Of a stretch of 64,000 nucleotides of DNA, positions 3,943-63,967 are shown one piece after another. The notes under the pieces are model-generated. The model saw only the letters and a list, made by a program, of their open reading frames with translations, did no database searches and was not told where the DNA came from. Origin of the DNA: Candidatus Wolfebacteria bacterium GW2011_GWB1_47_1 (GTDB lineage: Bacteria > Patescibacteriota > Minisyncoccia > UBA6257 > UBA9933); the NCBI GenBank assembly GCA_001029635.1, contig CP011209.1, forward strand, positions 551,774 to 615,773. Reading direction: 5' to 3'. Numbering within the stretch: the stretch's first letter is position 1; each line of letters starts with the position of its first letter. The translations under genes and the position numbers were made by a program.

Positions 3943-4125
3943 TATTTTGTCAATTTTCCATCAAATGACGTAAAATTATTACTTACATGTATTGATTGTG
4001 TTTATGTTTCCAACGTGTAAATCCCCGGGCCAAACGTCCGGGGATAAAGTCATCTTTATCAACTTTTCTGTGCCGCGTAGCTTGTCTTGTGGTGCATTCT
4101 TGTGTCCGCGTGAACGATATTGTTC

Positions 4126-4587
4126 TTAGCGTGACGTATCAGTCCGTAGCTGTATTGATTGCGCCATAATGCTACCGTCAGCGTTGGCGGTTCCTATAGT
4201 GGTTACCTGTGTGCCGGTTGTCAGATCGGCGAGCGAGCCATCGATTGACTTCATGACCTTTGTCGCGTCCGACAAGAATACTATCCGTGATCCGCCGTCG
4301 CGAAGTTTTATCGTAATGCTTGCAGCGTCTTTAGAGAGAATTTCTCCTGCTATTAAACCGCCATTGTTCGTTCTCGTTGTTCCACTGGCGCGTTGTGTTC
4401 CCGCGAACCCTCCATTTACCATGCGCGCTTGGCGTTGTTCTTGCGTCATGTTGGCGAATGACTCATTTTGTTGAGGATTATTTGTGTTACTGCGCTCATA
4501 GCGCATACCTGCGTAGAACGATCCTGTTCCAACGATGATACTCGCCACAATAACTGGAATACATTTGCTAATCAATTGTTTTGTCAT
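4126..4587 (-). CDS. hypothetical membrane-anchored periplasmic protein (DUF5666-like), accessory to the adjacent ABC efflux genes
   Basis: 153 aa; N-terminal TM then Gly/Thr-rich beta-type domain; directly downstream of the FtsX permease on the same strand. Confidence 0.5.
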   Translation of the reverse strand: MTKQLISKCIPVIVASIIVGTGSFYAGMRYERSNTNNPQQNESFANMTQEQRQARMVNGGFAGTQRASGTTRTNNGGLIAGEILSKDAASITIKLRDGGSRIVFLSDATKVMKSIDGSLADLTTGTQVTTIGTANADGSIMAQSIQLRTDTSR

Positions 4588-4605: not shown

Positions 4606-5829
4606 TTATTCGTATCGTAATGCTTCGATCGGATTCAGACGTGCGGCGCGGCGTGCCGGATAATAGCCGAATACAATGCCGATCCCTGCTGACACGCCGA
4701 AGGCCAATGCCACGGAGGTGAACGTTACTTGTGTTTGCAGGAGGTTAAAGTAGGTAACTCCAAAGGAAACCATCCATCCTAGTAGTACCCCCACAAATCC
4801 TCCTATAAACGTAAGGATAATTGCTTCAATGAGAAATTGAAGGCTGATATCTCTTTTCTTTGCACCAATCGCTTTGCGCAGTCCAATTTCGCGCGTGCGT
4901 TCCGTTACTGTGGTTAGCATCATATTCATGATGCCAATACCACCGACGACGAGCGATATGCCCGCGATCGCTGCGAGCAGGATTGTGAATGTTTGGGTTA
5001 TGGTAGACGCAGTCGCGATGATATCCGCCTGGTTCATAATATTGAAATCTGCCAGAGTCATATCGCTTATATGGTGGCGTTCCATCAGAAGAACAGATAT
5101 CTGTTGTTGTATATCGGTCATCGACTCGGCGCTTTCTGCCTGCACGCTGATTGTGGTTACATACGTATCTCCTGCCAAAAATCGCTGCGCACTGGAAAGG
5201 GGAATGAAGATCGTGTCATCTGGGTTGCTGAATCCACTCCCTCCCTTTGTTTTTGCGATGCCGATCACCTTGAACTCGATGTTCTTAATACGTATCGTCT
5301 GTCCAACGGCATCGACTCCTTCGCCGAATAGATCATCCCTTGTTGTCGGGCCTAGTACAGCAACCTTAGAAAGACTGCGTACGTTTTGATCCGTGATAAA
5401 TGAACCAAAGTCGATTTCTATGTTTCGTATCGATAGGTATGCGGCGGTAGTACCGATGACCGATGTGTTCGTGTTCTTACCCTTGCTTGTGATCTGATAC
5501 CTCCCTGATATTTCCGGTGCAACTGCTTTCGCGAGGCTTACCTCCTTTATAATCGCATCGGCATCGCCCTGTGTAAGTGAGCGGGCCGATCCTCGCCCTG
5601 CACTTATCTGTGTTCCTGCTCCGCGTTGTTGTCCCGGCATGACGAGTACAAGATTCGAACCGATTGACTGAATACTTGATTGAATTGATCCTTGTGCTCC
5701 TTGTCCGATCGCCACCATGGCAATGACCGAACTGATGCCGATTATGATACCAAGCATTGTGAGTCCCGATCGTACCTTGTTTCCCGAGAGCGCAGAGTAG
5801 GTTTCTTCTATAATGTCAACTATGGTCAT
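4606..5829 (-). CDS. ABC transporter permease, MacB/FtsX family
   Basis: 407 aa; N-terminal TM, large periplasmic domain, C-terminal FtsX 3-TM bundle; overlaps the upstream ATPase gene by 14 nt. Confidence 0.85.
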
Positions 5830-18309: not shown

Positions 18310-18351
18310 AAAAACGGGACTTGCAGCCTTTTTGATTGTTGAGGGTATTAT

Positions 18352-18386
18352 AAAGACCATACGCATCATGCGTATGGTCTTTATGT
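18352..18386 (-). terminator. long palindromic hairpin terminator downstream of tRNA-Leu (bidirectional)
   Basis: AAAGACCATACGCATCATGCGTATGGTCTTT, 14-bp stem. Confidence 0.65.
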
Positions 18387-24875: not shown

Positions 24876-24910
24876 ACACAAACACCGCCTTGAGGCGGTG
24901 TTTGTGTATA
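24876..24910 (+). terminator. 14-bp hairpin after the tRNA pair (terminator/processing stem)
   Basis: ACACAAACACCGCCTTGAGGCGGTGTTTGTGT; no long U-run. Confidence 0.5.
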
Positions 24911-27150: not shown

Positions 27151-28194
27151 ATGGGATTGTTCAATTATTTTGTAAAGGATATCGGAATCGATCTGGGAAC
27201 TGCCAATTCGCTTGTATATATCAAGGAGCGTGGCATTATCATTAATGAGCCTTCGATCGCGGCGATGAATAACAAGACCGGGCAGGTGCTTGCTATCGGC
27301 GAAGAGGCTAAAAAAATGTTAGGGCGTACGCCCGCGCATATTACCGTCGTAAAGCCGCTCGTCAATGGAGTTATTTCTGACTTTGAAATGGCACAGGAGA
27401 TGTTGCGTTATTTTTTGAAGCGCGTAAACAACAATCGGATGTTCAGCTATCATCGTGCTGTCATCGGCATTCCGCCCAATTTGACCGAGGTGGAACGTAA
27501 GTCTGTTGAGGATGCCGCTATCAATGCGGGCGCGGCAAAGGCATTCCTTGTGGAGGAGCCGATCGCAGCGGCGCTGGGTGCGCGATTGCCGATTCAAGAA
27601 GCCATGGCCACCATGATTGTTGATATTGGAGGAGGTACGACTGACATTGCCATTATTTCGATGGGGAGTAGTGTCATCAGTCGCAGTTTGAAGGTTGCCG
27701 GCGATAAGTTGAACGATGATATTATCAAATTCGTTCGGGAAGAGTTCAAACTTATGATCGGCGAGCCAACCGCAGAAGAACTGAAAAAAACCATTGGCTC
27801 GGCCATTCCAATGGAAGAGCGCATGGAGCTTGCGATCCGCGGTCGTGATATGGGGACGGGATTGCCACGCGAGGTCATCGTAAAAAATACCCAGATCCGC
27901 GCCGCCATTGGTCGTTCATTGCGACAGATTGTCGAATGCGTTAAAGAGACTATTGAAAAGACTCCGCCCGAGCTGGTGGGTGATATCTATGAGCGCGGTA
28001 TCTATTTGTGTGGAGGCGGGAGTCTCTTGCGCGGCATCGATCAGCTCATTGAAAAAGAAGTGACAGTGCCGGTAACGGTTATCGACGACCCACTTACGGC
28101 GGTCGTGAGAGGAACCGGCGTTATCGCCGAGGATATCGATGCGTATGCACAGCTGTTTGTTACGTCGTTGAAGCCATTGGACATCAACATTTAA
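27151..28194 (+). CDS. mreB: rod shape-determining protein MreB
   Basis: GIDLGTANSLVYIKERG..., actin-fold phosphate motifs. Confidence 0.95.
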   Translation: MGLFNYFVKDIGIDLGTANSLVYIKERGIIINEPSIAAMNNKTGQVLAIGEEAKKMLGRTPAHITVVKPLVNGVISDFEMAQEMLRYFLKRVNNNRMFSYHRAVIGIPPNLTEVERKSVEDAAINAGAAKAFLVEEPIAAALGARLPIQEAMATMIVDIGGGTTDIAIISMGSSVISRSLKVAGDKLNDDIIKFVREEFKLMIGEPTAEELKKTIGSAIPMEERMELAIRGRDMGTGLPREVIVKNTQIRAAIGRSLRQIVECVKETIEKTPPELVGDIYERGIYLCGGGSLLRGIDQLIEKEVTVPVTVIDDPLTAVVRGTGVIAEDIDAYAQLFVTSLKPLDINI

Positions 28195-28195
28195 T

Positions 28196-28318
28196 AAAAT
28201 TCATTCTATTGGCCAATTACTTTGTTGCGGGCCCCTGTCGTCTCGGTCGGAGTACTATTCGTACACCTTCCTCGATAACTTTCCCGCGTCGCGTACTTTG
28301 CTCAATAGAATGAATTTT
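28196..28318 (+). ncRNA. copy A of a 3-member conserved structured intergenic element (candidate novel RNA motif)
   Basis: 16-bp outer stem AAAATTCATTCTATTGG/CAATAGAATGAATTTT enclosing the core TTGTTGCGGGCCCC..TCTCGGTCGG-[hairpin]-CCTTCCTCGATAACTTTCCCGCG; paralogous to 32546..32672 and 63373..63498. Confidence 0.55.
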
Positions 28319-28355
28319 AACTCTAAAAATAAGTTTTGTTATGTAGTTAAACGCC

Positions 28356-29042
28356 ATGAAAAGAATCGTTCTTATAAGTTTCACCGCAATTATTCTTATC
28401 GTAACATTCTTCTCGGGGATCTTTATTCCTAAGCGTGCATTTGTTGTCTCGGTTAATTTTGCGAAGCAATACTTGCGAACCGATTTCTACCAGGAAAACG
28501 TCCTCCTGAAGTTGCAAAACGAAAATCTGAAGGCGCAATTGCAGCGCGTGCAGGATGTTCCTGATGGTGGGGTAATATTCGATGAACATCGGTCTGATCG
28601 TATCGCGGCGAACGTCTTCTCTACATATCCGTTCAATATGAAGGATACAATCTCCGTCGATCGGGGATCGAGTGATGGTGTTGCCAATGCGATGGTTGCG
28701 ACGGTCGCGGATTCCATTCTGCTCGGGCAGGTGACCGGAGTACGTGAACATTCGTCGGTTGTGCGGACTATCTTTGATTCTCATTGGCAATTGCCGGTGC
28801 GGATCGGCCCAGATAATATTAATGGTCTTTTTGAAGGAGGGAATGATCCAAAGGTTGTCTTAGTCGAAAAGCAGATCAAGGTGGGTGATGGCGTCTTCTC
28901 TGCCGCGAAAGAATTTCCCATGGGGATCAAGATCGGGGAGATAAAGGAAATAAAGGAGGAAGCCGGAGGGATTTTTAAGGAGGCAACCATTCGAACTCCC
29001 TATAGTATCGGAGAAGTGCGGGCCATTTTTTTAGAACAATAA
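28356..29042 (+). CDS. mreC: rod shape-determining protein MreC
   Basis: N-terminal TM, coiled coil, beta-barrel domains; downstream of mreB. Confidence 0.75.
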   Translation: MKRIVLISFTAIILIVTFFSGIFIPKRAFVVSVNFAKQYLRTDFYQENVLLKLQNENLKAQLQRVQDVPDGGVIFDEHRSDRIAANVFSTYPFNMKDTISVDRGSSDGVANAMVATVADSILLGQVTGVREHSSVVRTIFDSHWQLPVRIGPDNINGLFEGGNDPKVVLVEKQIKVGDGVFSAAKEFPMGIKIGEIKEIKEEAGGIFKEATIRTPYSIGEVRAIFLEQ

Positions 29043-29068: not shown

Positions 29069-29096
29069 TTGACAAGTATCCGTGTATTTTTATAAT
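29069..29096 (+). promoter_or_regulatory. sigma70-type promoter for grpE-dnaK (TTGACA-N16-TATAAT)
   Basis: TTGACAAGTATCCGTGTATTTTTATAAT. Confidence 0.6.
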
Positions 29097-29128: not shown

Positions 29129-29626
29129 ATGGAAGACACAACACAATATACAAACGGATCGGAGGATTCGAATAACCCTGTGGATAGTTCTCATACCGAC
29201 CAGCTTACTAAGGAGCGGGATGAATACCTCGATGGGTGGCAGCGTTCTCGTGCTGAATTGGTGAACTATAAAAAGGATGAAGCCAAGCGACTTGATGATA
29301 TGATGAAGCTCGCCAATGGTGCTCTTATCAGGGATCTGATTATGGTTATTGATAATTTCGAACTTGCCATCATGGCTATGGAGAAGCAGGGCAGCGTTGA
29401 AAAGGGAATTTATCTTATTAAGGCGCAGCTCGAAGATATCCTCAAGCAGTATGGACTCGAGAAGATGCCGATTACGGTTGGTGAACAATTTGATCCGACC
29501 AAACATGAAGCAGTCGCATCGATCGAATCGGAACTTTCCCCTGATTCCGTCGTTGAGGAAGTTGAGCGCGGCTATTATCTGCATGGCAAGCTTATCCGCC
29601 CCTCGCGCGTAAAGGTTGCGCGATGA
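29129..29626 (+). CDS. grpE: nucleotide exchange factor GrpE
   Basis: coiled-coil N-term + LIRDLIMVIDNFELA, four-helix bundle and beta-domain. Confidence 0.9.
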   Translation: MEDTTQYTNGSEDSNNPVDSSHTDQLTKERDEYLDGWQRSRAELVNYKKDEAKRLDDMMKLANGALIRDLIMVIDNFELAIMAMEKQGSVEKGIYLIKAQLEDILKQYGLEKMPITVGEQFDPTKHEAVASIESELSPDSVVEEVERGYYLHGKLIRPSRVKVAR

Positions 29627-29691: not shown

Positions 29692-31569
29692 ATGGCTAAA
29701 ATTCTTGGTATAGATTTAGGAACGACAAACTCCGCGATGGCCATCATTGAGGGTGGCGAACCGCGAGTATTGGAAAATCATGAAGGAAATAGAACAACTC
29801 CGTCGATCGTAGCGATCAGTAAGGCGAATGAACGGCTTGTTGGTTTATTGGCGAAGCGTCAAGGTGTTGTTAACCCGAAAAACACCATCTTTTCGGTAAA
29901 GCGTCTCATTGGGCGTAAGTTTACCGATCCGGAAGTGCAGCATGATAAGGCATGGTTGCCGTTTGAGATGCGCGCGTCGGAATCAGGTGGTGTCGAAGTA
30001 CAGATGGGGGATCGCTGGTACAAACCGGAAGAGATTTCCGCAATGATTCTCGCAAAATTAAAGGCTGACGCGGAAGCGAAGGTTGGAGAAACGATTAATG
30101 AAGTGGTCATTACCGTGCCTGCGTATTTTGACGATTCGCAGCGCCAGGCTACTAAAAACGCCGGTGAAATCGCGGGATTTACCGTGAAGCGTATTATTAA
30201 TGAACCGACGGCAGCAGCGCTCGCCTATGGCTTGAACAAGCAGAAAGCAGAAAAGATTGTAGTATATGATTTTGGTGGTGGAACGTTCGATGTGTCCGTG
30301 CTTGAGATCGGCGATGATGTTGTCGAAGTGTTGGCGACCGGCGGTGATACGCATTTGGGTGGCGATGACTTTGATAAGACGATCATCGAATATCTGGTAC
30401 AGGAATACAAAAAGCAGGATGGTATTGATCTTTCCGGAGATGCACTCGCATTGCAGCGCTTGAAGGAGGTTGCCGAGCGTGCAAAACATGAATTATCTAC
30501 CGCGTTCGAGACGGAAATCAATATTCCGTATATCACATCGGATGCATCGGGACCACGGCATTTTCTCATGAAGATGACCCGTGCAAAGCTCGAAGAACTC
30601 GTTGGTCCGCATATCGAGAAGTCTATCTCGATCGTACAAAAGATCGTCAAGGATGCTGGATTGCAGATCGGGGACATTAATGAAGTAGTCCTTGTCGGAG
30701 GGCAGATTCGAATGCCGAAGATCCATGAAGCGGTAAAGAACCTGTTTGGGAAAGAACCTCATAAGGGTATTAATCCGGATGAAGTTGTTGCGATCGGTGC
30801 CGCCGTGCAGGCGGGCATCTTCCAAGGCGATGTTAAGGACGTACTTTTGCTTGACGTCACGCCACTTTCGTTCGGAATCGAAACGATGGGCGGCGTGTTT
30901 ACTCCGTTGATCGAAAAGAACACGACTATCCCGACGCAGAAATCTCAGGTTTTTTCGACCGCTGCGGATAATCAGACTTCCGTTGAAATCCATATCCTGC
31001 AGGGTGAGCGCCCTATGGCATCTGATAACAAGACACTCGGCAAATTTATGCTTGATGGTATCCCGCCGGCACCGCGCGGCATTCCGCAGGTTGAGGTTTC
31101 TCTTGATATTGATGCGAATGGCATCCTGAACGTATCGGCCAAGGATAAGGCGACCGGCAAGGTGCAGTCCGTCCGCATCGAGGCGTCAACACAGCTATCC
31201 AAAGAAGAGATAGAAACGTTAAAGCAGGAGGCGGCCGTGCATGCTGAAGAAGATGCAAAAAAACGTCTTTTGATCGAAGCGCGTAACCATGCCGAACAAC
31301 TTGTTTATACTGCGGAAAAATCCCTCAAGGATGCGGGCGATAAGATCGGTGATGATATCAAAAGGTCAGTACAGGAGGCGATTGATGCGTTAAAGACTGT
31401 TAACAATAGCGATGACGCGGAAGCCATTGCGGCGAAAACTGAAGTGCTTTCGACCGAACTTCAAAAAATAGGTTCTGCGATGTATAATCAAGGAGATGCA
31501 TCATCACAGCCGAACGCGGCTGATGATACTCCTAACGAAGGAGAACCAACCACCAATGAATCCAATTGA
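29692..31569 (+). CDS. dnaK: molecular chaperone DnaK (Hsp70)
   Basis: [34 protein letters not shown] signatures. Confidence 0.98.
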
Positions 31570-32542
31570 TGTAAACAGGAATGTCGATATGATCGGCATA
31601 AAGGGATTGATAAAGATCGGGGCGCTTACATTTGTAGGCGTCCTTTTCGCACTTGGCTTTAGCTGGTTCTTTCGCTCTTTTTTGTTAGGGAGCGAATGGG
31701 GGCAACTCATCTGGAGCATGGCCTGCGCGATCGGCTATTTGGTTGTCTTCACCCTGCAAACATTCTTTATTCGCGCAAACACGCATTTTGCAGTCGCGTT
31801 TCTTTTGCAATGCATTGCCTTACTCGGATTCTTCATTACAATCACTACGCCCGTTATGATACTGTTTGCCGTGGTTTATGCATTACTTCTGAGTGCAAGC
31901 TTTGGCGGAAGGAAGATTTTGGAGAACACGCTTAAAATAGATTTTTGGAACATCAGCAAATTGATCGTACCTAAGGGGATCATCGCGTTGACACTTTTAA
32001 TCAGCGTATTTATTCCATTACATTTACAGGCGAACAAGGATGTGCTTCCGCTTTCAATAGCCACGTTCGACAAAGTCCTTGTCTCGAGTAATGTTTTTGT
32101 TAAGCGATTCTATCAGGATTATGATCCATCGAAGAGTGTCGAAGAAATCGCTCGAACTACGACGGAGCAGCAACTTGCCGCAATCCCACAGGCACAAAAT
32201 CTCAAACCGGTAGAGCGTGAGATTTTGATCAAGCGGGCCATGAACGATTTCTACGAGCAGATCTTCAGCTATACGGGCGTTACGATTAATCCTAAAGACC
32301 CATTTTCCAAAGCGGCCTATGGCATCCTAGAGGAGAAGTTTAACGGATTGAAGGACGAGGCAAAGCTATGGATCTATATCATATTTGGGAGTATCATCTT
32401 TATTTCGATCGCCAGTATCATGCTCCCGATCCGGATACTTGTCGGATTGCTTGCCTTCTTCTTTTATGAAACACTGCTTGCACTTGGGTTCGCGCATGTT
32501 ACGATAGAGAGTAGGCCTAAGGAGACAATTATATTAGACTGA
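31556..32542 (+). CDS. hypothetical polytopic membrane protein (328 aa) inserted between dnaK and dnaJ
   Basis: GAAGGAG SD; ATG 31556 overlaps the dnaK stop by 14 nt; multiple TM helices. Confidence 0.5.
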
Positions 32543-32545
32543 GTC

Positions 32546-32672
32546 AAAAAAACGAATAGGGACGGCGATTTACTGTATTGTGGGGTCCTATCAGCTTGGT
32601 CGGCGTATACGTAATACGACTCCCTCGCTGATTTTCCCACGCCTTGCAACTCATCCGTCCCCATTCGTTTTT
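32546..32672 (+). ncRNA. copy B of the conserved structured intergenic element
   Basis: outer stem AAAAACGAATAGGGACGG/CCGTCCCCATTCGTTTTT (one A:C mismatch); core GTATTGTGGGGTCC..GCTTGGTCGG-[hairpin]-CTCCCTCGCTGATTTTCCCACG. Confidence 0.55.
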
Positions 32673-32691
32673 ATTAGTAACGTATTATATT

Positions 32692-33801
32692 ATGAGTAAC
32701 GATTATTACAAAATTTTGGGCGTTGAAAAGGGCGCTTCCGATGACGATATCAAGAAGGCATATCGAAAACTCGCCCATCAATTTCATCCCGACAAAAAGG
32801 GCGGAGATGAGCAAAAGTTCAAGGAAATCAACGAGGCGTATCAGACCTTATCCAATAAAGATAAGCGTGCGCAGTATGATCGTTTCGGCAAGTCGTTTGA
32901 TGGGGGTGCGGGAGGGTCTGGTGGCTTTGGTGGCTTTAACCAGGGAGGTTTTGGGTTTGATTTTCAGGGTGGTGATTTTGGCGACCTGGGTGATATCTTC
33001 GAGGCTTTTTTTGAAGGCATGGGCGGACAGCAAAAGCGCCGTACGTATGCGCATGGGGCTGACATGGAGATGACGCAGGAGATTACACTTGAAGAGGCAT
33101 ACAAGGGGATCGAAAAAACGATCACTTACGCGCTTAATGTGCAGTGCGCTACTTGTAGCGGCCTTGGACATGATGCAAAGGCAACTTTTTCGCAGTGTAA
33201 GAAGTGTGACGGACGTGGCGAGGTCCGCGAGACACGCAGTACTTTTTTTGGTAATTTTGCCCAGGTGCGAACCTGCGCCGACTGTCATGGTGTTGGACAG
33301 ATACCCGACAAACGCTGTGTGTCCTGTGGCGGCACGGGTGTAACCAAGGGTAAAAAATCGATTACCGTCAAGATATTGCCGGGAGTTGGCGATGGTCAGA
33401 TTATTAAAATGACCGGCGGTGGGGAGGCTGGACAGCGAGGTTCCCAGGAGGGCGATCTTTATTTACATATTCGGGTCAAGCCGCACGCAACCTTTGTGCG
33501 TCAGGATGATCATCTCATCCTTGAGAAAGAAGTTACCCTAGTGGGGCTTCTTGCCTATTTTGCCGATGCCGATGCGCATCCGATATTCGCTCCGACCATT
33601 GCGGGCAAGCAGCAGAATCTTGCCATCCCGCGCGATTTCATGTTCAATAAGCCGCTAAAGATCGCAGGCGAGGGTATGCCGCATTTTAACCGTATGGGGA
33701 GAGGCGATCTGTATGTGCATTTTAAAATCGCCACGCCGCATAAGCTGAGTAAGGAGGCAAAGCGTCTGGTTAAGGAACTTATGCAGGATCTCGAGGCATA
33801 A
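32692..33801 (+). CDS. dnaJ: molecular chaperone DnaJ
   Basis: J-domain YYKILGV...HPDK, G/F-rich region, four CxxCxGxG zinc-finger repeats. Confidence 0.95.
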
Positions 33802-37900: not shown

Positions 37901-38526
37901 AGCATATTGATCTTGCAGAGCATATTCGGGGGTTGCATCCCGACGATGCCGAAATGCAAGGGGATGTAGATGCATTTATGAAGGCTGCAATTCGCAATAC
38001 ATCACCTAATGAACCCGAACAAGTACTTGAAGCGCGCGAAGTTATCGGGGATACGCTTCCGGTATCCGAAGTGACTAAAGAAGGAGGCATACTGCCTGAT
38101 TCATCATATGTGGATGTTATGCCTGAAGCGATCTCTGTAGCTAAGCCGATTGGTGTGGAGGATATACCGACCGTACCTCAGGTACTGGAAGATGTTTCGA
38201 CCGAACCACAGCCTATGGACGCCATTCCGGGTGTTGAAAAAATGATCGATTCGAATCGATTGGCATTACTCGAAGACGATATTTATAACAGCAAGATGCC
38301 GGTGCAAAAGATTATTACGCATTACAAGGTGGGGAATATTACTGCGGAAGACCTGCAAAATTTCTATAGTCAAAAAGTTGCGGGTGGGGCAAAGTCATCC
38401 CCGGAACTTATCGATGGTATGCGAACCACAATGCGGCATGCCGCAGGAGAGGGAACTCCTCAACAGCAGCTTATGGCAAAACGCACGCTTGAATTAATTA
38501 TTAGGCGCTTACAAGGTATTACATAA
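34990..38526 (+). CDS. giant acidic hypothetical protein (1178 aa) with central TM segments, no recognizable domains
   Basis: single uninterrupted ORF; E/K-rich coiled-coil-like N-terminal third; hydrophobic segments near aa 470-500 and 640-660. Confidence 0.7.
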   Translation: MEKKNLSPKSHLELLIPDKKHKKQKEDAVPHGFTEEDIIRNEAWHGKNPATQGAELPKHRATVYSFEETRIRKTANESHNSQGTEGGEQRLLQEERTMTTVELREAREGEEQQIKEIAQRVFEGRMRGDATETIDAMLAEKGIKPWSPEAEEFMRKWDWEQAEKAFAELARNREEAVLAVNEPEPKKHIELQEYQEKYVDGKFEAFNINLKKLPQELKDEFETLTYGQRLLLAENLQQLTLGRIQEEAQDRYQKAILEATLLTSKLLGRVWQGVSKKYQIAKHEQSTALDIKQGGLAYHGELLKQLIDGTKRTGLDAVEGKGGMLELQYVEPHPLMTERQKEETKEFNRVATLYGKIPYEWSLATATSLQKQEYERVAGQFEKAKEHILRTEQGIIGDEQTLLFVADMEHKIRLNQFLNTHPDAEKQIASIESDTLWKKVIGNVATERGIYFGAGVAARTSAIGLFGAVGLPLAAVGMGGWMARKRAAEMLRDREQAARKGKRDISRDTRTVMGTASTMADKIDTLLKKIESESNEEKRAQLVALLDVRLMHTEGKVRKGAVDFGGRDHRIINQYHLSDALTRASAFLSVRDAELGTTPETFKKDIEQALRVIAQSKNEKISQAQKDYLRKQMIYGAGLGIGFFSAGRYAQEIVHAAGDLVSPSEAHASAGAGASQWEVLAHQKNTPAVFGGQDALRTTALKNINEIAIAGVHERGPIVLDIGTRGPEGAFIDELKKHPEIVERLGIKDIGGEAHDAWTEFAKQQLSNPDTLEQLKKLGYSADEKGYADMMHRIAKGKILLEERDGKLLMHMDEHTEYLKSRPKGTMLKEVIAPREAVPADIPNEPQILDELLSASTQTIPMSEEHIASENIVEEIPNPQEDAAETIRRQPSEGILSLLGSTPRPSVEVFVDGQFGLDGAEYGAIKRVKVETLLKQIPSRDEAWAIWRGDVPGKEITLPHDGIYGAVEFKKHIDLAEHIRGLHPDDAEMQGDVDAFMKAAIRNTSPNEPEQVLEAREVIGDTLPVSEVTKEGGILPDSSYVDVMPEAISVAKPIGVEDIPTVPQVLEDVSTEPQPMDAIPGVEKMIDSNRLALLEDDIYNSKMPVQKIITHYKVGNITAEDLQNFYSQKVAGGAKSSPELIDGMRTTMRHAAGEGTPQQQLMAKRTLELIIRRLQGIT

Positions 38527-38534
38527 ACCTTAAA

Positions 38535-38572
38535 AAGGAGTCCGTCTGGTTGACGAGCTCCTTTTTATTTTT
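38535..38572 (+). terminator. hairpin + T-run terminator
   Basis: GGAGTCCGTCTGGTTGACGAGCTCC then TTTTTATTTTT. Confidence 0.5.
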
Positions 38573-39863: not shown

Positions 39864-41357
39864 ATGACCACCATCATAAAAAAAATAACGGTCGTATTCC
39901 TTGCATTGTTTATGGTTGCCGGAATGGCCGCTCCGTCTGCGACCGCACTTGCGGCGACATTTAACAATGACAGCCGCGATTATGCAACGTTGCAGGTTTC
40001 AAACTACACCCGTAACCCGGGCAGCAATAGTAATTGGTCTAACTCCGTATCCGCAAGCGCAGGCGAAGTCGTCAGCTTCCTGGTGTATTACCACAACACT
40101 GCATCCGACACGGCAAGCAACACCCGTATCCGCGTGCAACTTCCGTCGGGAGCATTTACGAACCGTACGGTTACTGGAGAGGTTTTTTCCTTAACTACTT
40201 CTACCGTAAATGGTTCCGCATCAATCAATCTGTCGTCAAATCAGACGCTGACTTTTATTCCAGGAAGCGTGAGTTGGTATCCGAACCAGTCAACCGTTTC
40301 TCAAACATTGCCGAACGGACAGAACGGCAGTGAAATCGTCTCCTCCAATGGTGTTCTTATTGGAGATATTGCAGGAGGATGGGGTGCGCAAGGATATATT
40401 GTATTTCGCGCGCAGGTGAGTTCCGGTAGTCAGTCGATAGTAGTCAATTCCTCGACTAATGCGCGTAGTCCGTATGTCACCACACGCGCAGCTTCTTCTG
40501 TGTCCCGTTCAAGCGTATTATTGCGTGGGGCAATAAACCCTAACGGGACACTTACTACTGGATGGTTTGAATATGGTGTGACTCCTTCTCTTGGTAGAAC
40601 GACAATCGTTCAGCCTATGGGGCAATCTCAGTACTCGAACGCGTATTCTTCCGTTTTGAGCGGCTTGCAGGCAGGTACGACCTATTATTATCGGGCTGCT
40701 GCTCAGAATTCCTATGGCACGGCGCGCGGGCATATCCTTAGCTTTACGACATCGGGAGGTGTAGTTGCGCAGATTGCTCCGCGCACAATCGTTCAACGTA
40801 CTGCAACCGTTCGTTCGGAAGCGGTCACTATAGGGGATGATGCATTGATCATACTTGATCCATCTATTGATGTCGTTCGGCCTAATGCTGGAGACACGAT
40901 CACCTATACGATCATCTATAAAAACAAAACTAATACGGCATTGCGCGATGCACAATTGAGTATCGTTCTTCCGGAAGATATTGTGTATAGAGAAGCTTCC
41001 GTCGATCCAACCTCGGTTACTGATGGGCAAATCGCATTTAATCTCGGCACTATTGCTGCCCGAGAATCCGGATCCATTGATATTACTTTAATGATAAGCG
41101 AGGCGGTGCGTGCGAATGATTCTTTTTCGATCAATGCATTATTGGATTACGCCAATGGACGTGGCGATATGCAAACGGTAAGCGCCTATCTTGTATTCTT
41201 GGTAAATGATGGAACTGCCGGGTTAGCATCACTTTCGAGCGTTTTCGGGGGGTTGCTTGATAACTGGTTCATTGATCTGGTCCTCGGATTGATCATCGGA
41301 TTTGGTATCTATCATTTCTTCGTTCGACAGAAAGATGAAGTGCTATTGGTAAAATAA
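39864..41357 (+). CDS. secreted cell-surface repeat protein, paralog A (signal peptide, DUF11/CARDB-like N-domain, two ~104-aa repeats, DUF11-like domain, C-terminal TM anchor)
   Basis: MTTIIKKITVVFLALFMVAGMAAPSATALA signal; the ORF-track start 39477 is rejected because paralog alignment fixes ATG 39864; C-terminal WFIDLVLGLIIGFGIYHFFVRQK. Confidence 0.8.
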   Translation: MTTIIKKITVVFLALFMVAGMAAPSATALAATFNNDSRDYATLQVSNYTRNPGSNSNWSNSVSASAGEVVSFLVYYHNTASDTASNTRIRVQLPSGAFTNRTVTGEVFSLTTSTVNGSASINLSSNQTLTFIPGSVSWYPNQSTVSQTLPNGQNGSEIVSSNGVLIGDIAGGWGAQGYIVFRAQVSSGSQSIVVNSSTNARSPYVTTRAASSVSRSSVLLRGAINPNGTLTTGWFEYGVTPSLGRTTIVQPMGQSQYSNAYSSVLSGLQAGTTYYYRAAAQNSYGTARGHILSFTTSGGVVAQIAPRTIVQRTATVRSEAVTIGDDALIILDPSIDVVRPNAGDTITYTIIYKNKTNTALRDAQLSIVLPEDIVYREASVDPTSVTDGQIAFNLGTIAARESGSIDITLMISEAVRANDSFSINALLDYANGRGDMQTVSAYLVFLVNDGTAGLASLSSVFGGLLDNWFIDLVLGLIIGFGIYHFFVRQKDEVLLVK

Positions 41358-41368
41358 TATGTTTCCCA

Positions 41369-41402
41369 TAAAACAGCTCCTCTCGGGTGAGCTGTTTTAG
41401 CT
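41369..41402 (+). terminator. rho-independent terminator
   Basis: AAAACAGCTCCTCTCGGGTGAGCTGTTTTA. Confidence 0.65.
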
Positions 41403-41464
41403 AAAAGGGGGTCGATTATTGTTTTAATAACATCCTCGCAAGCTAATCAATAAAAATCATCATC

Positions 41465-42688
41465 ATGACATTTATCATCAAAAAAATATCCAGCGCATTT
41501 CTTGTTTTACTGGTAATCGTAGGAGTGGTCGCTCCGTCCGCGACCGCACTTGCCGCGACCTTCAACAATGACAGCCGCGATTATGCAACGTTGCAGGTTT
41601 CAAACTACACCCGCAATCCGGGCAGCAGCGCCAATTGGTCCAACTCCGTATCCGCAAACGAAGGCGAAGTAGTCAGCTTCCTCGTGTATTACCACAACAC
41701 CGCATCCGATACGGCAAACAATACCCGCATCCGCGTGAAACTTCCGTCGGGAATGTTTACGAATTCGTCCATCCAGGGAGATGTTTGGGCAAATAACGAA
41801 TCTGCTGTTGCCGGCACTGCATCGGTCAGTCTGTCGTCAAATCAGACACTAACTTTCATCCCGGGAAGTGTTGTATGGTATCCGAACCAGTCAACCGTTT
41901 CGCAGACATTACCAAACGGACAGAATGGCAGTGAAATTGTTTCTTCCAATGGCCTTATCATCGGTGATATCGCTAGTGGATGGGATGCACAGGGATATAT
42001 CGTATTTCGCGCGCAGGTGAGCTCGACTCCTACTGGATCGTTGGCAACCGTTACAACACAGAGTGCAAGTTCGCTTGCACAGCGATCCGCTACCATATCC
42101 GCACTTATTGATGCAAATGGGGCAAACACGTCGACTTGGTTCGAATATGGTACCGCACCATCATTCGGCTCTATAACTGCTGAGCAGACGATTGGATCAA
42201 GTGCTTCCGGTTCTAATATTACCGCATATCTTACTAATCTTTCCCCTAATACTACATATCATTATCGTGCCGTTGCTCGCAATGCCCATGGGATAGCCCA
42301 TGGAGTTACGTTACAATTTTCTACGCTAGTAGCCGGTGCACAGGCGACTGCCGTCACTAATGGAACAAATGATATTACCGGATCATCTGCTACGATAACG
42401 GGGGCTGTTAATCCGAACAATGCAAATACCGCCGTTTGGTTTGAATATGGGACTAGTGCATTGTTCGGTCGTGTTGACGGTAGTCGATCGATCGGCTCTG
42501 GAAGTGCCTCGGTCGAGCTCACTTTTTTGCTTACCGGACTAACTCCGCGAACCTTGTATTATTATAGAGTTGTTGCCCAGAATTCTTACGGAACGACGTA
42601 TGGTTCTACTATATATTTCACAACAAAGGCGGATGGACCTGTTCCTCCTGTTGTGAATGGACCGAGCATTATGCCAAGTTCATACTAA
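41465..42688 (+). CDS. secreted repeat protein, paralog B (same N-domain, three repeats, no C-terminal DUF11/TM anchor)
   Basis: N-terminal ~190 aa almost identical to A/C at DNA level; ends ...KADGPVPPVVNGPSIMPSSY without the anchor module. Confidence 0.75.
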   Translation: MTFIIKKISSAFLVLLVIVGVVAPSATALAATFNNDSRDYATLQVSNYTRNPGSSANWSNSVSANEGEVVSFLVYYHNTASDTANNTRIRVKLPSGMFTNSSIQGDVWANNESAVAGTASVSLSSNQTLTFIPGSVVWYPNQSTVSQTLPNGQNGSEIVSSNGLIIGDIASGWDAQGYIVFRAQVSSTPTGSLATVTTQSASSLAQRSATISALIDANGANTSTWFEYGTAPSFGSITAEQTIGSSASGSNITAYLTNLSPNTTYHYRAVARNAHGIAHGVTLQFSTLVAGAQATAVTNGTNDITGSSATITGAVNPNNANTAVWFEYGTSALFGRVDGSRSIGSGSASVELTFLLTGLTPRTLYYYRVVAQNSYGTTYGSTIYFTTKADGPVPPVVNGPSIMPSSY

Positions 42689-42699
42689 TCAAACGCAAA

Positions 42700-42735
42700 A
42701 AAGAGCATATCAGTGCTCTTTTTTGCGCTTGCGTG
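42700..42735 (+). terminator. rho-independent terminator
   Basis: AAAAAGAGCATATCAGTGCTCTTTTTT. Confidence 0.7.
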
Positions 42736-42772
42736 AAGAGGGGATTTTAGAGATGCGTTTTAGGACACTAAT

Positions 42773-42801
42773 TGACAAAACAGTACGATTTAGTATATAA
42801 T
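42773..42801 (+). promoter_or_regulatory. consensus sigma70 promoter TTGACA-N17-TATAAT with ~100-nt leader
   Basis: TTGACAAAACAGTACGATTTAGTATATAAT. Confidence 0.65.
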
Positions 42802-42899
42802 ACTTATAAGTGATCAATATTCAGATTTTGATCAGGGACGGTAACGATGAATGGATTTAGTTATCCATTTTGAAATAGTAATATTAGTATCATATCCAT

Positions 42900-45332
42900 A
42901 TGACCACCATCATCAAAAAAATAACCATCGCATTCCTTGCCTTACTGGTAATCGTAGGAGTGGTCGCTCCATTTGCTAACGTTTTTGCCGCGACCTTCAA
43001 CAATGACAGCCGCGATTATGCAACGTTGCAGGTTTCAAACTACACCCGCAATCCGGGCAGCAGCGCCAATTGGTCCAACTCCGTATCCGCAAACGAAGGC
43101 GAAGTAGTCAGCTTCCTCGTGTATTACCACAACACCGCATCCGATACGGCAAGCAACACCCGTATCCGCGTGCAACTTCCGTCGGGAGCATTTACCAATG
43201 TGTCCATTCAGGGAGATGTTTGGGCACATAACGGATCTGCTGTTGCCGGCACTGCATCGGTCAGTCTGTCGTCAAATCAGACACTAACTTTCATCCCGGG
43301 AAGTGTTGCATGGTATCCGAACCAGTCAACCGTTTCTCAAACATTGCCGAACGGACAGAACGGCAGTGAAATTGTTTCTTCCAATGGCCTTATCATCGGT
43401 GATATCGCTAGTGGATGGGATGCACAGGGATACATCGTATTCCGTGCGCAGGTGAGCTCGAATACCGTTAATCCGCCGCAACAGAACGGATCAGCTCCGT
43501 TTGTTTCGACTAATACCGCATCAGCTATTCAGCAGGATCGCGCGACTGTTCAAGGAACCGTCAATCCAAATAATGCAAATACGAATGCTTGGTTCGAATA
43601 TGGAACGACGCAGTCTTTTGGAAACACGACCGGATATCAGGTTATCGGCCTAGGCAATTCCAGTACGAATGCCGTGGGGTACTTCTACAATCTGAATCAG
43701 AATACAACCTATTATTATCGTATTGTCGCCCAAAATGCTTATGGGACGACGTATGGAAACATATTAAGCTTCACAACGCAGGGTTCCACGACTGGCACCG
43801 GCAGCGCACCGTATGCCACAACGCATTCGGCGTATTCTGTCGCACAGAATTCCGCGACGTTACAGGGTGCTGCTAATCCGAATGGGCTTGCCACTACGGC
43901 TTGGTTCGAATATGGAACGACGCAGTCTTTTGGAAACACGACCGGATATCAGACTATTGGTTTAGCGAATTCAGCCTCCACTATTTCCGGATATCTTTCG
44001 AATCTGTCTTCCAATACAACGTATTACTATCGCATTGTCGCACAAAATGCCTATGGGACGACGTATGGGAATACATTGAATGTTATGACACAGCAGTCCT
44101 ACGGAGGAGGCAATAATGGCTCTGTTCCTACTGCCTATACTAATACGGTTTCGGCTTCAGGGGTAAACTCAGCAACATTTAGCGGTTCAGTCAATCCAAA
44201 TGGTAACTATACCAATGCATGGTTTGAATATGGTCTAAGCCAGTCATTGGGGTATACGATTGGGTATCAGGCGCTTGGGTCAAGTAGTTACGCTTCTGCT
44301 ATTACGGCGAATGTGTATAATCTTGCACCGAACACAGCCTACTATTATCGAGCCGTTGCGCAAAATTCTTACGGGACAAACTATGGGACCATTCTAACCT
44401 TTACTACAAGCGGTTCTTCGATCAATAATGCAAGCAAGGCTCCTTATGTTACGAGCCGGGCCGTGCAATCTGTTTTTCGTAATTCCGCATTGATCAACGG
44501 TAATGTTAATCCTAATGGATCACTTACTACCGCATGGTTTGAGTGGGGTGTTACTGCTTCGTTGGGTAGCCGGACCATGATCCAGCCTGTCGGTATGGCA
44601 AACTATTCAGATAGTTATTCCGCTGTGTTGAGTGGATTGTTGCCTGGGACCGATTACTATTATCGGGCTGTTGCACAGAATGCCTATGGGACGACGTACG
44701 GAACTATTCTTACATTTACAACCTCGGCGCAAACTATCGTTCCGGTCGTCGTGAATAATAAGACTACCGAGCCGCGCGTGGTCGTCCAACAGATTACGGG
44801 ATCATCTGCGGTTGAACAGACCGTCATTTTAACTCCCTCGATTGACAAGAGCGATCCGCGAGCAGGGGATGCTGTTAAGTATTCTATTCAATATCGCAAT
44901 GAAGGAGCAAGTGCGATCACTGGAGCAACCGTGAAGATTCTTCTTCCTAGTGAGGTGGAATATGACAGCGCTACGATGAAGCCGAGTTTTGTTGAAGATA
45001 ATGAACTCACCTTCGACTTGGGTACAATCAAGGGTCATAGCCAGGGGGTCATCACGATTAAAGCAACTATCGATACTGCTGTCGATGCGGATAGCGCATT
45101 GATGTTCAGTGCGACATTAAACTATACCGATGCAAAGAAGCAGTTCCAATCTACGAGTGCCTATTTGACCGTCATGGTCGAAGTAGGTTCTGCGGGATTA
45201 GCTTCGCTCTTTGGCGTATTCGGTACGTTATTAAATAATTGGTTTGTTGATCTCGTACTCGGTCTCTTGATCGGATTCGGTATTTACCACTTCTTTGTCC
45301 GACAAAAGGAGGAAGAAGCTCTGATCAAATAA
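42900..45332 (+). CDS. secreted cell-surface repeat protein, paralog C (six ~104-aa repeats, DUF11-like domain, C-terminal TM anchor)
   Basis: 810 aa; repeats each contain NPNG..T.AWFEYG...TTYYYR.VAQN.YGTTYG; C-term WFVDLVLGLLIGFGIYHFFVRQKEEEALIK. Confidence 0.85.
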   Translation: MTTIIKKITIAFLALLVIVGVVAPFANVFAATFNNDSRDYATLQVSNYTRNPGSSANWSNSVSANEGEVVSFLVYYHNTASDTASNTRIRVQLPSGAFTNVSIQGDVWAHNGSAVAGTASVSLSSNQTLTFIPGSVAWYPNQSTVSQTLPNGQNGSEIVSSNGLIIGDIASGWDAQGYIVFRAQVSSNTVNPPQQNGSAPFVSTNTASAIQQDRATVQGTVNPNNANTNAWFEYGTTQSFGNTTGYQVIGLGNSSTNAVGYFYNLNQNTTYYYRIVAQNAYGTTYGNILSFTTQGSTTGTGSAPYATTHSAYSVAQNSATLQGAANPNGLATTAWFEYGTTQSFGNTTGYQTIGLANSASTISGYLSNLSSNTTYYYRIVAQNAYGTTYGNTLNVMTQQSYGGGNNGSVPTAYTNTVSASGVNSATFSGSVNPNGNYTNAWFEYGLSQSLGYTIGYQALGSSSYASAITANVYNLAPNTAYYYRAVAQNSYGTNYGTILTFTTSGSSINNASKAPYVTSRAVQSVFRNSALINGNVNPNGSLTTAWFEWGVTASLGSRTMIQPVGMANYSDSYSAVLSGLLPGTDYYYRAVAQNAYGTTYGTILTFTTSAQTIVPVVVNNKTTEPRVVVQQITGSSAVEQTVILTPSIDKSDPRAGDAVKYSIQYRNEGASAITGATVKILLPSEVEYDSATMKPSFVEDNELTFDLGTIKGHSQGVITIKATIDTAVDADSALMFSATLNYTDAKKQFQSTSAYLTVMVEVGSAGLASLFGVFGTLLNNWFVDLVLGLLIGFGIYHFFVRQKEEEALIK
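43589..44212 (+). repeat. two adjacent 312-nt intragenic tandem repeat units (two protein repeats) with long identical stretches
   Basis: TTGGTTCGAATATGGAACGACGCAGTCTTTTGGAAACACGACCGGATATCAG occurs at 43589 and again at 43901. Confidence 0.8.
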
Positions 45333-59049: not shown

Positions 59050-59696
59050 CAAAGAAAGATTATTTGCTTGGCGTTGTGGCAGGATTACTTATCGGATTGC
59101 TCGCTATGCCTGCCCTGTCTGCCGGGCTGACCGTATCGCTGTATAATTCCATTCGTATATTCATTATCCCTTTCTTTTTACTGGGTACTCCGTTGGGATT
59201 ATACGTGGCAGCTTTGCTTGGTAAGAAGATCCCTGCCGTATGGCAGATCGGCAAGTTTGGTGTTATTGGTATATTAAACACACTTGTCGATCTTGGTGTC
59301 CTTGCGGCAATCGCTTCCTTTGTCAATTCGCGCTATGGGGTTGAGTCGGATTATATCATTGGAATGATCGGCACGTGGACGGTTACGATCTATACTATGT
59401 ATAAGGCAATCTCCTTTGTGGTTGCGAATATCAATAGCTATCTATGGAACAAGTATTGGACGTTTGCCGTCGGTGTCGCACAGAAGACAAAGGCTGAATA
59501 TCTTCAGTTCTTCATTATTAGTATCGTTGGGTTCGTTATCAATGTTGCCGTATCTTCCGTTGCATTTGTATTTGCCTTGGGCTTAGAAGGTTTGACTTCT
59601 GGGCAAGCGGGATCGATTGGCGCATTAACAGGAACAGTACTAGGCCTCCTATGGAATTTCGTGGGATATAAATTTATCGTATTTAAAAATAAATAA
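59046..59696 (+). CDS. GtrA-like membrane protein with N-terminal extension
   Basis: KFGVIGILNTLVDLGVL ... NSYLWNKYWTF pattern of the GtrA family; 4-nt overlap with the upstream gene. Confidence 0.55.
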   Translation: MTKKDYLLGVVAGLLIGLLAMPALSAGLTVSLYNSIRIFIIPFFLLGTPLGLYVAALLGKKIPAVWQIGKFGVIGILNTLVDLGVLAAIASFVNSRYGVESDYIIGMIGTWTVTIYTMYKAISFVVANINSYLWNKYWTFAVGVAQKTKAEYLQFFIISIVGFVINVAVSSVAFVFALGLEGLTSGQAGSIGALTGTVLGLLWNFVGYKFIVFKNK

Positions 59697-59699
59697 CGA

Positions 59700-59735
59700 A
59701 AAAAATTCATGCGTTGCATGAATTTTTTTATTTTT
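59700..59735 (+). terminator. rho-independent terminator
   Basis: AAAAAAATTCATGCGTTGCATGAATTTTTTT. Confidence 0.75.
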
Positions 59736-60010
59736 TTAAAAAAAATAATTAAAAATAAAATATAAAAATAATTTTTTGAAAAATTTGAGTTATCCACATT
59801 GTAAAAATATTTTTTTTATTACAAAATTAAAGTATAAGAAAAATAAATAAACAAAAGTAAAAAATATTTTTATCTTTTATTTATTTTTTTTATTGCTTGG
59901 TCATCGATTTAAAATATATTTGATTGGTCGACAAATTTATTTTGAATATAAAAACAAATAATATTTTTCATTTATGCATCTCGATGCATTCATGAAATTA
60001 CAACATCACT
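59736..60010. promoter_or_regulatory. ~275-bp extremely AT-rich tract with one perfect DnaA box (TTATCCACA at ~59789) upstream of the KA-repeat micro-protein gene
   Basis: base composition far below window average, A/T homopolymer runs, consensus DnaA box. Confidence 0.5.
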
Positions 60011-60166
60011 ATGGCAGTAAAGAAAGCCGCCAAAAAGGCAGTGAAGAAGGCCGTTAAGAAGGTAGCCAAAAAGGCAGTGAAGAAGGCCGTTAAGAAGGTA
60101 GTGAAGAAGGCCGTTAAGAAGGTAGCTAAAAAGAAAGTTGCCAAGAAAGTTGCAAAGAAGAAATAA
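60011..60166 (+). CDS. 51-aa Lys/Ala-repeat basic protein (histone H1-like / HC-like nucleoid-type protein); absent from the ORF track (<60 aa)
   Basis: translation MAVKKAAKKAVKKAVKKVAKKAVKKAVKKVVKKAVKKVAKKKVAKKVAKKK; 27-nt tandem DNA repeats; strong terminator immediately downstream. Confidence 0.6.
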   Translation: MAVKKAAKKAVKKAVKKVAKKAVKKAVKKVVKKAVKKVAKKKVAKKVAKKK

Positions 60167-63372: not shown

Positions 63373-63498
63373 AATAATCTTTCAATTTGGCGAATTGCTT
63401 TGTTGCGGGCCCCGATTGTCTCGGTCGTCGTACGCGTAAGTACGACTTCCTCGACAATCTTCCCGCACCTCGCACCTCATCCAAATTGAAAGATTATT
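63373..63498 (+). ncRNA. copy C of the conserved structured intergenic element
   Basis: perfect 18-bp outer stem AATAATCTTTCAATTTGG/CCAAATTGAAAGATTATT; core TTGTTGCGGGCCCCGATTGTCTCGGTCG-[TCGTAC..GTACGA]-CTTCCTCGACAATCTTCCCGCAC. Confidence 0.55.
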
Positions 63499-63514: not shown

Positions 63515-63964
63515 ATGACAATCAATAAAGATCTTTATTTTGTTGCGGTAAAAGTATTTTTACAGGATCAAGAGGGGAGGTTATTAATTACCAAAGATCG
63601 CTTCGATGCTTGGGATATACCCGGCGGGAGGTTGCGGGAAATGGATTTTGTAACGCCCCTTGAAGCTGTTATTGAGCGAAAGATGCTTGAGGAGCTTGGT
63701 GAATCGGTTCGATATGATCTAGGTGATCCTGTGATTTTTATGCGCCATGAGCGGGATGAATTACTACCTTCCGGAGAGCGGGAAAAGCGAAGGATCTTCG
63801 CTGTTGGGTATCGTGCAACGTATCGTGGCGGGGAGATCGTTTTGGGAGGAAATCATGAGCAATACGAATGGGTATCTCTGGACACATTTGTTCCCGAACG
63901 TTATTTTACCGGAGGCTGGTTGCGGGGAATAAAGGAATTTATTGAGAAGGTTAAAATTAGTTAA
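63515..63964 (+). CDS. Nudix-fold protein with degenerate Nudix box
   Basis: PGGRLREMDFVTPLEAVIERKMLEELGE approximates GX5EX7REUXEEXGU. Confidence 0.45.
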   Translation: MTINKDLYFVAVKVFLQDQEGRLLITKDRFDAWDIPGGRLREMDFVTPLEAVIERKMLEELGESVRYDLGDPVIFMRHERDELLPSGEREKRRIFAVGYRATYRGGEIVLGGNHEQYEWVSLDTFVPERYFTGGWLRGIKEFIEKVKIS

Positions 63965-63967
63965 CAT

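Follow-up and report, generated by a model that had tools for sequence, protein, structure and literature searches.

Stem-loops located between cistrons set differential expression within operons, the REP sequence in malEFG being an example. ERIC elements are transcribed together with the genes on either side, many of them lie at a 3′ gene end near the stop codon, and they alter the stability of the upstream mRNA in an orientation-dependent manner by unmasking an RNase E site (PMC2229807, PMC10969869). The Correia (NEMIS) elements of Neisseria are MITE-like hairpin repeats with TA ends that are transcribed into long stem-loops; these are cut by RNase III, and the stability of the neighboring transcript is changed (PMC2229807, PMC10969869). 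REP/BIME/REPIN sequences are found after genes and between co-directional or convergent ORFs, are transcribed, and have been proposed to be mRNA stabilizers (PMC3733652), and RUP is a pneumococcal MITE mobilized by IS630-Spn1, such elements duplicating TA (PMC2229807).

Here we describe a hairpin element from a 64-kb stretch of Candidatus Wolfebacteria DNA, the whole of which is referred to below as the window. The copy studied, copy B, resembles ERIC (also called IRU) in that it belongs to a dispersed, multi-copy, MITE-like family and is an imperfect palindrome of about 125 nt (127 bp in ERIC). A literature search yielded no specific description of a hairpin repeat of Patescibacteria.

Results

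Copy B is an extended hairpin with two homologs in the window

RNA and DNA folding indicated that positions 32546 to 32672 form one single, extended and irregular hairpin. The minimum free energy of the plus-strand RNA was −50.8 kcal/mol, compared with −31.5 ± 3.3 kcal/mol for dinucleotide shuffles (z = −5.9), none of the 200 of which folded as well as the native sequence. The minus-strand RNA gave −58.7 kcal/mol (z = −7.6), and DNA parameters yielded a z score of about −5 on either strand. The covariance-model score of copy B was 145 bits. Standard pairs were found at 17 of the 18 positions of the basal stem and at 41 of the 44 consensus pairs overall, the exceptions being two A·C pairs (32558/32662 and 32572/32647) and one G·A pair (32603/32619). 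In the apical motif, two 2 × 2 pyrimidine internal loops flank a GG/CC step and a GUA/UAC stem, and copy B is terminated by a U-run beyond the stem, UUUUUAUU.

Repeat finding and alignment revealed three copies of the element in the window (A, B and C; Table 1), all in the plus orientation. Copy A occupies the mreB–mreC spacer, outside the heat-shock operon and not beside hrcA or grpE. We used the three copies to build a covariance model (R1); run with filters off, it detected no fourth true copy in the window, its other matches being weak, ordinary small hairpins. Pairwise identity was 56% for B and A, 62% for B and C, and 66% for A and C. The outer 18-bp stems were 37 to 49% identical, near random for their composition, and the cores were 62 to 73% identical; that is, the basal stem changes in sequence from copy to copy while its pairing is kept, and a core of about 90 nt is conserved. 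Double (compensatory) changes were found in 19 of the 44 pairs from these three copies alone. These results agree with the first-pass annotation, which had described a structured element in three copies, with copy B as the most diverged of them and its helices preserved through compensatory substitutions: A, B and C are homologous, copy B folds with a z score near −6, and its identity to the other two copies is the lowest. Two further candidate features, a promoter inside the 3′ arm of copy B and a small minus-strand ORF at 32464–32664, were rejected on sequence grounds.

Table 1. Positions of copy B, its parts, the other two copies and the neighboring genes (window coordinates)
Feature	Position	Strand	Remarks
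Copy A	28195..28319	+	between mreB (27151-28194) and mreC (28356-29042)
Promoter-like site, perfect TTGACA-16-TATAAT	29069..29096	+	ahead of grpE; consensus match only
grpE	29129-29626		upstream of dnaK
dnaK	29692-31569		between grpE and gene X
Gene X, conserved uncharacterized multi-pass membrane protein	31556..32542	+	between dnaK and dnaJ
TGA stop codon of gene X	32540..32542	+	5 nt ahead of stem
Copy B, whole element	32546..32672	+	extended hairpin of about 125 nt; from folds, covariance model and pair list
Basal 18-bp stem, 5′ arm	32548..32565	+	pairs with 32655-32672; inverted repeat I15; sequence copy-specific
Conserved core	32566..32654	+	GGCGAUUU...CAUCC-type; internal helices and apical stem
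Core helix	32567-32573/32646-32652	+	pair list, family covariation
Core helix	32579-32584/32636-32641	+	contains conserved U·G 32579/32641
Core helix	32590-32595/32627-32632	+	pair list, family covariation
Apical signature, CUUGGUCGGCGUAUACGUAAUACGACUCCCUCG-type motif	32596..32626	+	pattern scans, alignments
Basal stem, 3′ arm	32655..32672	+	followed by UUUUUAUU-like tail at 32668-32675
dnaJ	32692..33801	+	ATG 19 nt past element
Copy C	63373..63498	+	between secA (60817-63369) and NUDIX gene (63515-63964)

The window also contains repeats of other kinds. Between 52870 and 54760, a canonical terminator, AAAAAAGCCGGGCATAATGCCCGGCTTT, occurs four times and a second hairpin, TTTCCGTCATTCGATGACGGAAAAT, three times, at intervals of about 500 to 860 nt, a pattern suggestive of small paralogous gene units arrayed in tandem. 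Long direct repeats at 39864–44727, which fall into several families (up to 300 nt, 62–92% identity, spacing about 300–1600 nt), encode WFEYG...YYYR-type modules and probably belong to one or more very large repeat-domain surface proteins. The region 59680–59980 is extremely AT-rich and full of overlapping inverted repeats, and the gene start at 59989–60156 carries nine 12-nt repeats and encodes an AKKAVKK-type lysine/alanine-rich (histone H1-like) protein.

Copy B lies between gene X and dnaJ, where relatives carry, lack or replace it

Copy B separates grpE, dnaK and the membrane-protein gene X from dnaJ, the gene order given by the first-pass annotation. The product of gene X had no Pfam match, and 26 homologs were found in Wolfebacteria-like genomes. 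The longest ORF of X shares 74 nt with the 3′ end of dnaK (window 31496–31569), and the called dnaK and X genes of relatives overlap by 4 to 35 nt, which suggests tight translational coupling. Judged by its consensus match, the promoter-like site ahead of grpE is likely to be the start of the transcript that carries copy B.

Contigs carrying X homologs were found by protein search and then fetched, so that this sample is independent of the DNA pattern of the element. The order mreC–grpE–dnaK–X–dnaJ was conserved among them. The X–dnaJ spacer contained the element in three relatives (L192, L184 and L190; R1 scores of 97–111 bits) and was empty in three others (L186, L188 and L189), where it measured 22 to 60 nt, or 22 to 31 nt in the narrower of two estimates. 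Such short spacers imply co-transcription of X and dnaJ, and copy B therefore appears to interrupt a co-transcribed grpE–dnaK–X–dnaJ unit. Two more relatives (L187 and L191) had unrelated simple hairpins in place of the element. In L185, a variant was found with the same basal and lower helices and a different, longer apex; at 3996–4235 of this contig (equivalent to about 9000–9230 of L194), the apex is replaced by about 110 nt including a perfect 14-bp hairpin, CGTCGGTGCCGTT...AACGGCACCGACG, which may be a nested insertion.

The mreB–mreC spacer gave a similar picture. The element was present in the window and in L060/L074 and L194, and other Wolfebacteria have an ortholog of copy A at this site; in L193, the interval from the stop codon to the conserved ACTCTAAAAA leader contained nothing but a 25-nt mini-hairpin. 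The loop of this mini-hairpin (4793–4817), CTGTACAT, shares seven of eight bases with the apical CTGTACAC of L074 and could be a deletion remnant or a chance match (rough p about 0.05). The element is dispensable at these sites and is gained and lost like a mobile insertion. Since it is absent from the X–dnaJ spacer in three relatives and replaced in two, it is not a dedicated dnaK/dnaJ regulator.

Where the element is present, its core sequence and pairing are under purifying selection. Orthologous B copies were 61 to 67% identical, compared with 30 to 51% at 4-fold sites of X, which are near saturation, and their 3′ flanks could not be aligned at all. Their basal stems had 14 to 18 of 18 positions paired, and an independent MAFFT/RNAalifold analysis of four orthologous B copies recovered the same helices, with compensatory changes at 19 of 42 pairs. 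Together, these comparisons show that selection acts on both the core sequence and the pairing.

The element belongs to a covarying family placed in the sense orientation behind genes

We searched for the family using an 18-base apical signature (GGTCGnnGTA-loop-TACnnCTnCCTCG) in one genome per species, and scanned metagenomes with a stricter form of it. About 90 matches were expected by chance in the genome collection, and many of the actual matches are chance ones inside coding regions. Full-length matches with R1 scores of 65 to 126 bits were found in Wolfebacteria, Kaiserbacteria, other Paceibacterota and related MAGs, the family being common in Wolfebacteria, Kaiserbacteria and other Paceibacteria. 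A pattern scan of viral contigs gave no match. Rfam 15 returned no gathering-score match in the window or in 15 related loci other than tRNAs and one 23S rRNA, and nothing relevant at E values up to 10 for copy B and two GC-rich relatives.

In 26 family copies, aligned by fitting to the covariance model and thus leaning toward the structure, 91.8% of the cells were paired, compared with 67.4% after partners were shuffled (0 of 500 shuffles as high) and 37 to 46% when partners were slid by one to three columns. Double changes were found in 38 of the 44 pairs, the basal helix covaried at all 18 of its pairs, and the U·G pair was kept in 23 of the 26 copies. Element length was nearly constant at 122 to 127 nt. 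The family thus displays the covariation and strand-specific placement expected of a conserved structured RNA, with the covariation taken from a model-fitted alignment and the wobble pairs picking no strand.

Among the approximately 21 complete, non-redundant copies, 19 had the stop codon of a same-strand long ORF between −5 and +5 nt from the stem base. The orientation of the element matched the strand of the upstream gene in 19 of 19 copies, and none of the approximately 21 lay in a divergent spacer. The next same-strand gene mostly starts 16 to 54 nt past the element; copies before convergent genes, with no downstream cistron, exist too. Genes upstream of copies encode MreB, FtsA, FtsZ, SecA, SecG, a pilin-like protein, X, a PcsB-like M23 peptidase, ABC-2 permeases, a CAP-domain protein and a TPP enzyme, and one Wolfebacteria contig has copies after both ftsA and ftsZ (L004/L104, adjacent stretches). 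Copy density was three per 64 kb in the window and reached four per 10.5 kb in L131. The products of mreB, ftsA, ftsZ, secA, secG and the pilin-like gene are typically needed in excess over those of their downstream neighbors, which fits a role in differential expression within operons.

Stop codons are also close to the ordinary gene-end hairpins of the window, which start at −7 to +8 nt. The element therefore shares the niche of simple hairpins, and it is the strand rule (19 of 19) that is the informative part of its placement. The gene- or tRNA-end hairpins at 18350–18384, 24876–24907, 42690–42731, 63961–63998 and 38525–38571 are near-perfect 15- to 18-bp palindromes with tiny loops, often including the stop codon and often missing a clear U-tract, an unusual style of terminator. 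These native stop-codon palindromes, along with the small hairpins at the empty sites of L193 and L187, prompted the idea that the core had been inserted into a pre-existing gene-end palindrome. This is less likely because element length is nearly constant (122–127 nt); compared by eye, the L193 and L187 hairpins matched basal stems at 7 of 13 and 7 of 11 positions, within chance.

The chemistry of pairing did not favor the sense strand. Setting aside the conserved U·G, we counted 20 G·U and 28 A·C pairs in the stems, and the antisense strand folded better by about 7.7 kcal/mol on average (in 20 of 23 copies). Pairing is thus no guide to the strand, and the assignment of the element to sense RNA rests on gene context. 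Shine–Dalgarno-like 4-mers numbered 63 on the antisense strand versus 16 on the sense strand; one possible reading is that the strand rule arose because antisense copies are selected against in mRNA, not because the sense strand has a selected function.

Longer hairpin repeats in other lineages share the apical motif

The same apex tips longer hairpin repeats (160–200 nt) in other lineages: a Myxococcota MAG with at least eight near-identical copies, a Clostridiales MAG, Parcubacteria/Taylorbacteria, Propionibacteriales (including a Microlunatus isolate), Fibrobacteria and Selenomonas sp. F0473. Phyla sharing the motif include Patescibacteria, Myxococcota, Actinomycetota and Firmicutes. A CGUY (5′ arm)/CCUYG (3′ arm) pair with the U·G, which lies outside the search pattern, was present in 31 of 60 hairpin-class matches versus 3 of 26 non-hairpin matches, and two of these three are misclassified family members.

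Relatives in Myxococcota, Parcubacteria and the Clostridiales MAG have terminal inverted repeats ending in TA or TAG. These ends are conserved as C-TA-GGAGCC...GGCTCC-TA-G in Myxococcota (terminus GGAGCCTGACCCAAGATGG) and as TA-GAACTC...GAGTTC-TA in a Parcubacteria subfamily (terminus GAACTCATTTCAAAACCCTACC), and long ORFs on both flanks, whichever the orientation, use the resulting TAG or TAA as their stop codon. This Parcubacteria subfamily (about 190 nt; L156, L174, L098 and others) has an extra side hairpin in the 5′ arm, whose stem covaries across species (ATGG/CCAT, ACAG/CTGT, ATAC/GTAT); its overall shape resembles a three-way junction and is more elaborate than a plain MITE hairpin. 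L160 carries an extra 21-nt GC-rich palindrome, CCTGCCTACCGGCAGGCAGG, in its 3′ arm, whereas the near-identical L122 and L180 do not; here a small palindrome has inserted into the element. Relatives outside mRNA 3′ ends were seen at 5601–5702 of L153 and at about 760–970 of L148, one of them having tRNA genes on one side and a 23S rRNA gene on the other, the second directly following a tRNA gene.

The shared apical motif, conserved ends and terminal TA/TAG of the longer repeats point to a MITE-like origin, and the window family is probably related by descent to these MITE-like hairpin repeats. Like MITEs, the window family is small (122–127 nt), non-coding and multi-copy (three in 64 kb), with presence or absence at two orthologous spacers. 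Conserved terminal inverted repeats are seen only in the related subfamilies of other lineages and not in A, B and C. Comparison of filled and empty orthologous sites (X–dnaJ and mreB–mreC) revealed no clear repeat that would represent a target-site duplication, and the ends of the relatives are palindromic (CTAG/TAA), which makes the length of a TA duplication ambiguous. Evidence for a MITE origin of the window family is therefore indirect, its terminal inverted repeats being unconserved and a clear target-site duplication being absent. The 1.4 Mb of fetched loci contained no transposase flanked by solo termini, which would have been a sign of an autonomous partner, and a search there for separated termini returned nothing but the small elements with their paired ends. 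A blastn search of plasmids with the Myxococcota variant gave no match.

Discussion

The placement and evolution of copy B suggest, with a probability of roughly 0.5, that it is an ERIC/Correia-like palindromic repeat retained as an intercistronic mRNA hairpin that tunes processing or stability. We favor this reading because of the sense placement within operons, the excess-needed upstream genes, the interchangeability with simple hairpins, the constant size and the precedents in other bacteria. Copies would have become fixed directly past stop codons and been retained through the effect of the transcribed hairpin. Copy B would be transcribed within the grpE–dnaK–X–dnaJ message and fold into a rod consisting of the 18-bp basal stem followed by the irregular conserved upper part. 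This hairpin would block 3′-to-5′ exonucleases; it may also act as an RNase III site, the 18-bp basal duplex and the next helices being long enough for a double-strand-specific ribonuclease, or as a leaky terminator. The upstream dnaK–X segment and the downstream dnaJ segment would then gain different stabilities or amounts.

From this we infer an effect on mRNA fate and the dnaK/dnaJ ratio. The first-pass annotation had proposed that copy B may modulate this ratio, for example by partial termination or mRNA stabilization. The part of that proposal that holds is that the element is structured, conserved and situated inside the operon; its dispensability at this site speaks against a modulation specific to dnaK and dnaJ. 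The annotation also left out of account that the element belongs to a dispersed repeat family with MITE-like relatives, and its proposal is plausible as a single outcome of something more general. Leaky termination by copy B is possible given its UUUUUAUU end, but a U-tract past the stem is missing in about half of the family, so that intrinsic termination is not a conserved property of the family.

An unlikely alternative is that the element is a purely selfish MITE or palindromic repeat without host function, whose positions merely reflect tolerated insertions in a compact genome and whose hairpin reflects the requirements of the element itself or palindrome processes at the DNA level. Its patchy presence in the X–dnaJ and mreB–mreC spacers would fit, as would the related subfamilies with inverted termini, TA/TAG ends and many near-identical copies per genome; the position at stop codons is not special, being shared with ordinary hairpins, and G·U and A·C mismatches are equally common. 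However, substitutions accumulate more slowly in orthologous copies than at 4-fold sites, and pairing is kept past neutral saturation. Moreover, the basal stems are unconserved in sequence and hence not transposase-binding terminal repeats, although their length and pairing are kept, and orientation follows the upstream gene in 19 of 19 copies, whereas the MITE-like relatives occur in both orientations.

The retained-hairpin reading leaves the fixed pyrimidine mismatches and the U·G unexplained, as these exceed the needs of a generic barrier hairpin, and they keep open a specific recognition function in RNA or single-stranded DNA. The element may be a recognition element of a new kind whose core is bound by a conserved protein or the ribosome. 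As candidate roles, it could couple or shunt translation between the stop codon and the following start, or sense temperature in the heat-shock operon. We regard this reading as quite unlikely. It would account for the conservation of the core sequence and mismatches in the family and across phyla, for the enrichment of the CGUY...CCUYG motif (31/60 versus 3/26) and for the lack of matching Rfam families, and the hairpin base indeed brings the stop codon (0–5 nt) close to the next start (mostly 16–54 nt). Conversely, the reading has no known candidate partner to point to, orthologous sites can do without the element, the L185 ortholog has a different apex on a retained basal stem, and copies occur before convergent genes, with one relative after a tRNA gene. 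The heat-shock operon, moreover, contains just one of the three window copies.

That copy B is an ordinary, complete intrinsic terminator with an unusually long stem seems improbable. Its position directly past a gene, the UUUUUAUU following its 3′ arm and the U-runs that end several Wolfebacteria copies are what such a terminator would show, but about half of the family has no U-tract, copies A and B are situated within operons, with no promoter-like site in the spacer for the genes downstream, and canonical terminators with a GC-rich stem and U-tract are present at operon ends in the same genomes. A terminator scan made no call for copy B, and the family does not fit the definition of an intrinsic terminator, a GC-rich stem with a short loop and an immediate U-tract. 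Very improbable is a single-stranded-DNA site, attC-like or a target of an HUH or tyrosine transposase, folded from one strand during replication. In its favor, both strands fold under DNA parameters, conservation of mismatches is also a feature of attC sites and IS200/IS605 ends, RNA is not favored by the pairing chemistry, and gene orientation is possibly confounded with replication direction. Against it, the ends of A, B and C have no RYYYAAC/GTTRRRY boxes and their neighbors are housekeeping genes, on which grounds an attC site was rejected; the copies are dispersed and form no cassette array, the Pfam annotations of the flanking genes checked included neither an integrase nor a transposase, and conservation is central here, the opposite of attC, which conserves its outer R″/R′ boxes around a variable center.

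A tentative and rather unlikely extension is that the apical module of about 60 to 90 nt is itself a functional unit of a cross-phylum class, recognized by a conserved ribonuclease, the ribosome or a recombinase. The module consists of CUCGGUCGnnGUA-loop-UACnnCUYCCUCG with the flanks GUUGCG and CGCGCCUUGC, fixed pyrimidine mismatches and a fixed U·G. If this is true, it would represent an unrecognized cross-phylum class of cis-acting elements beside stop codons rather than a lineage-specific MITE. The cross-phylum apical motif is absent from Rfam and could become an Rfam family.

The genomes of Patescibacteria are tiny and leave hardly any intergenic DNA to spare, and very little is known about post-transcriptional regulation in these bacteria. 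Here, 125 nt per site are spent inside core operons (mreBC, ftsAZ, sec and dnaK–dnaJ). Because of its compensatory evolution and its lock to the sense strand, the element is a good candidate for a general means of setting how much neighboring cistrons produce relative to each other, and it would offer a clean case of a mobile-looking palindromic element kept for its RNA structure.

Compared with the known systems, the element has no visible sequence relationship to ERIC, which occurs in another host phylum. Copies of ERIC share conserved terminal inverted repeats and are found in both orientations, whereas the termini of the window family are copy-specific with only the core conserved, and the window subfamily occurs in the sense orientation alone. 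The 26-bp terminal inverted repeats conserved in Correia elements, like their IHF sites and promoter pieces, are not evident here. REPs are 20 to 40 bp long, GC-rich, GTAG/CGTC-tagged and RAYT-linked (PMC3733652). The copy B element, at 125 nt, has arms that are not internally palindromic and a different composition, and no RAYT was found; it is thus not a REP or REPIN. The Parcubacteria and Myxococcota subfamilies resemble RUP in having inverted termini flanked by TA, whereas no IS630-like partner was identified and the window copies show no clear duplication. As in malEFG-type arrangements, the hairpin lies directly past the more abundant upstream cistron inside an operon; malEFG-type hairpins are simple, whereas the window element has a conserved, mismatch-rich core common to many loci and phyla. 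The family of copy B is best classed as an undescribed member of the transcribed palindromic repeats (MITE/ERIC/Correia/REP-like), and its unusual features are a conserved core combined with freely varying yet covarying termini, an orientation that is strictly sense and an apical motif that several phyla have in common.
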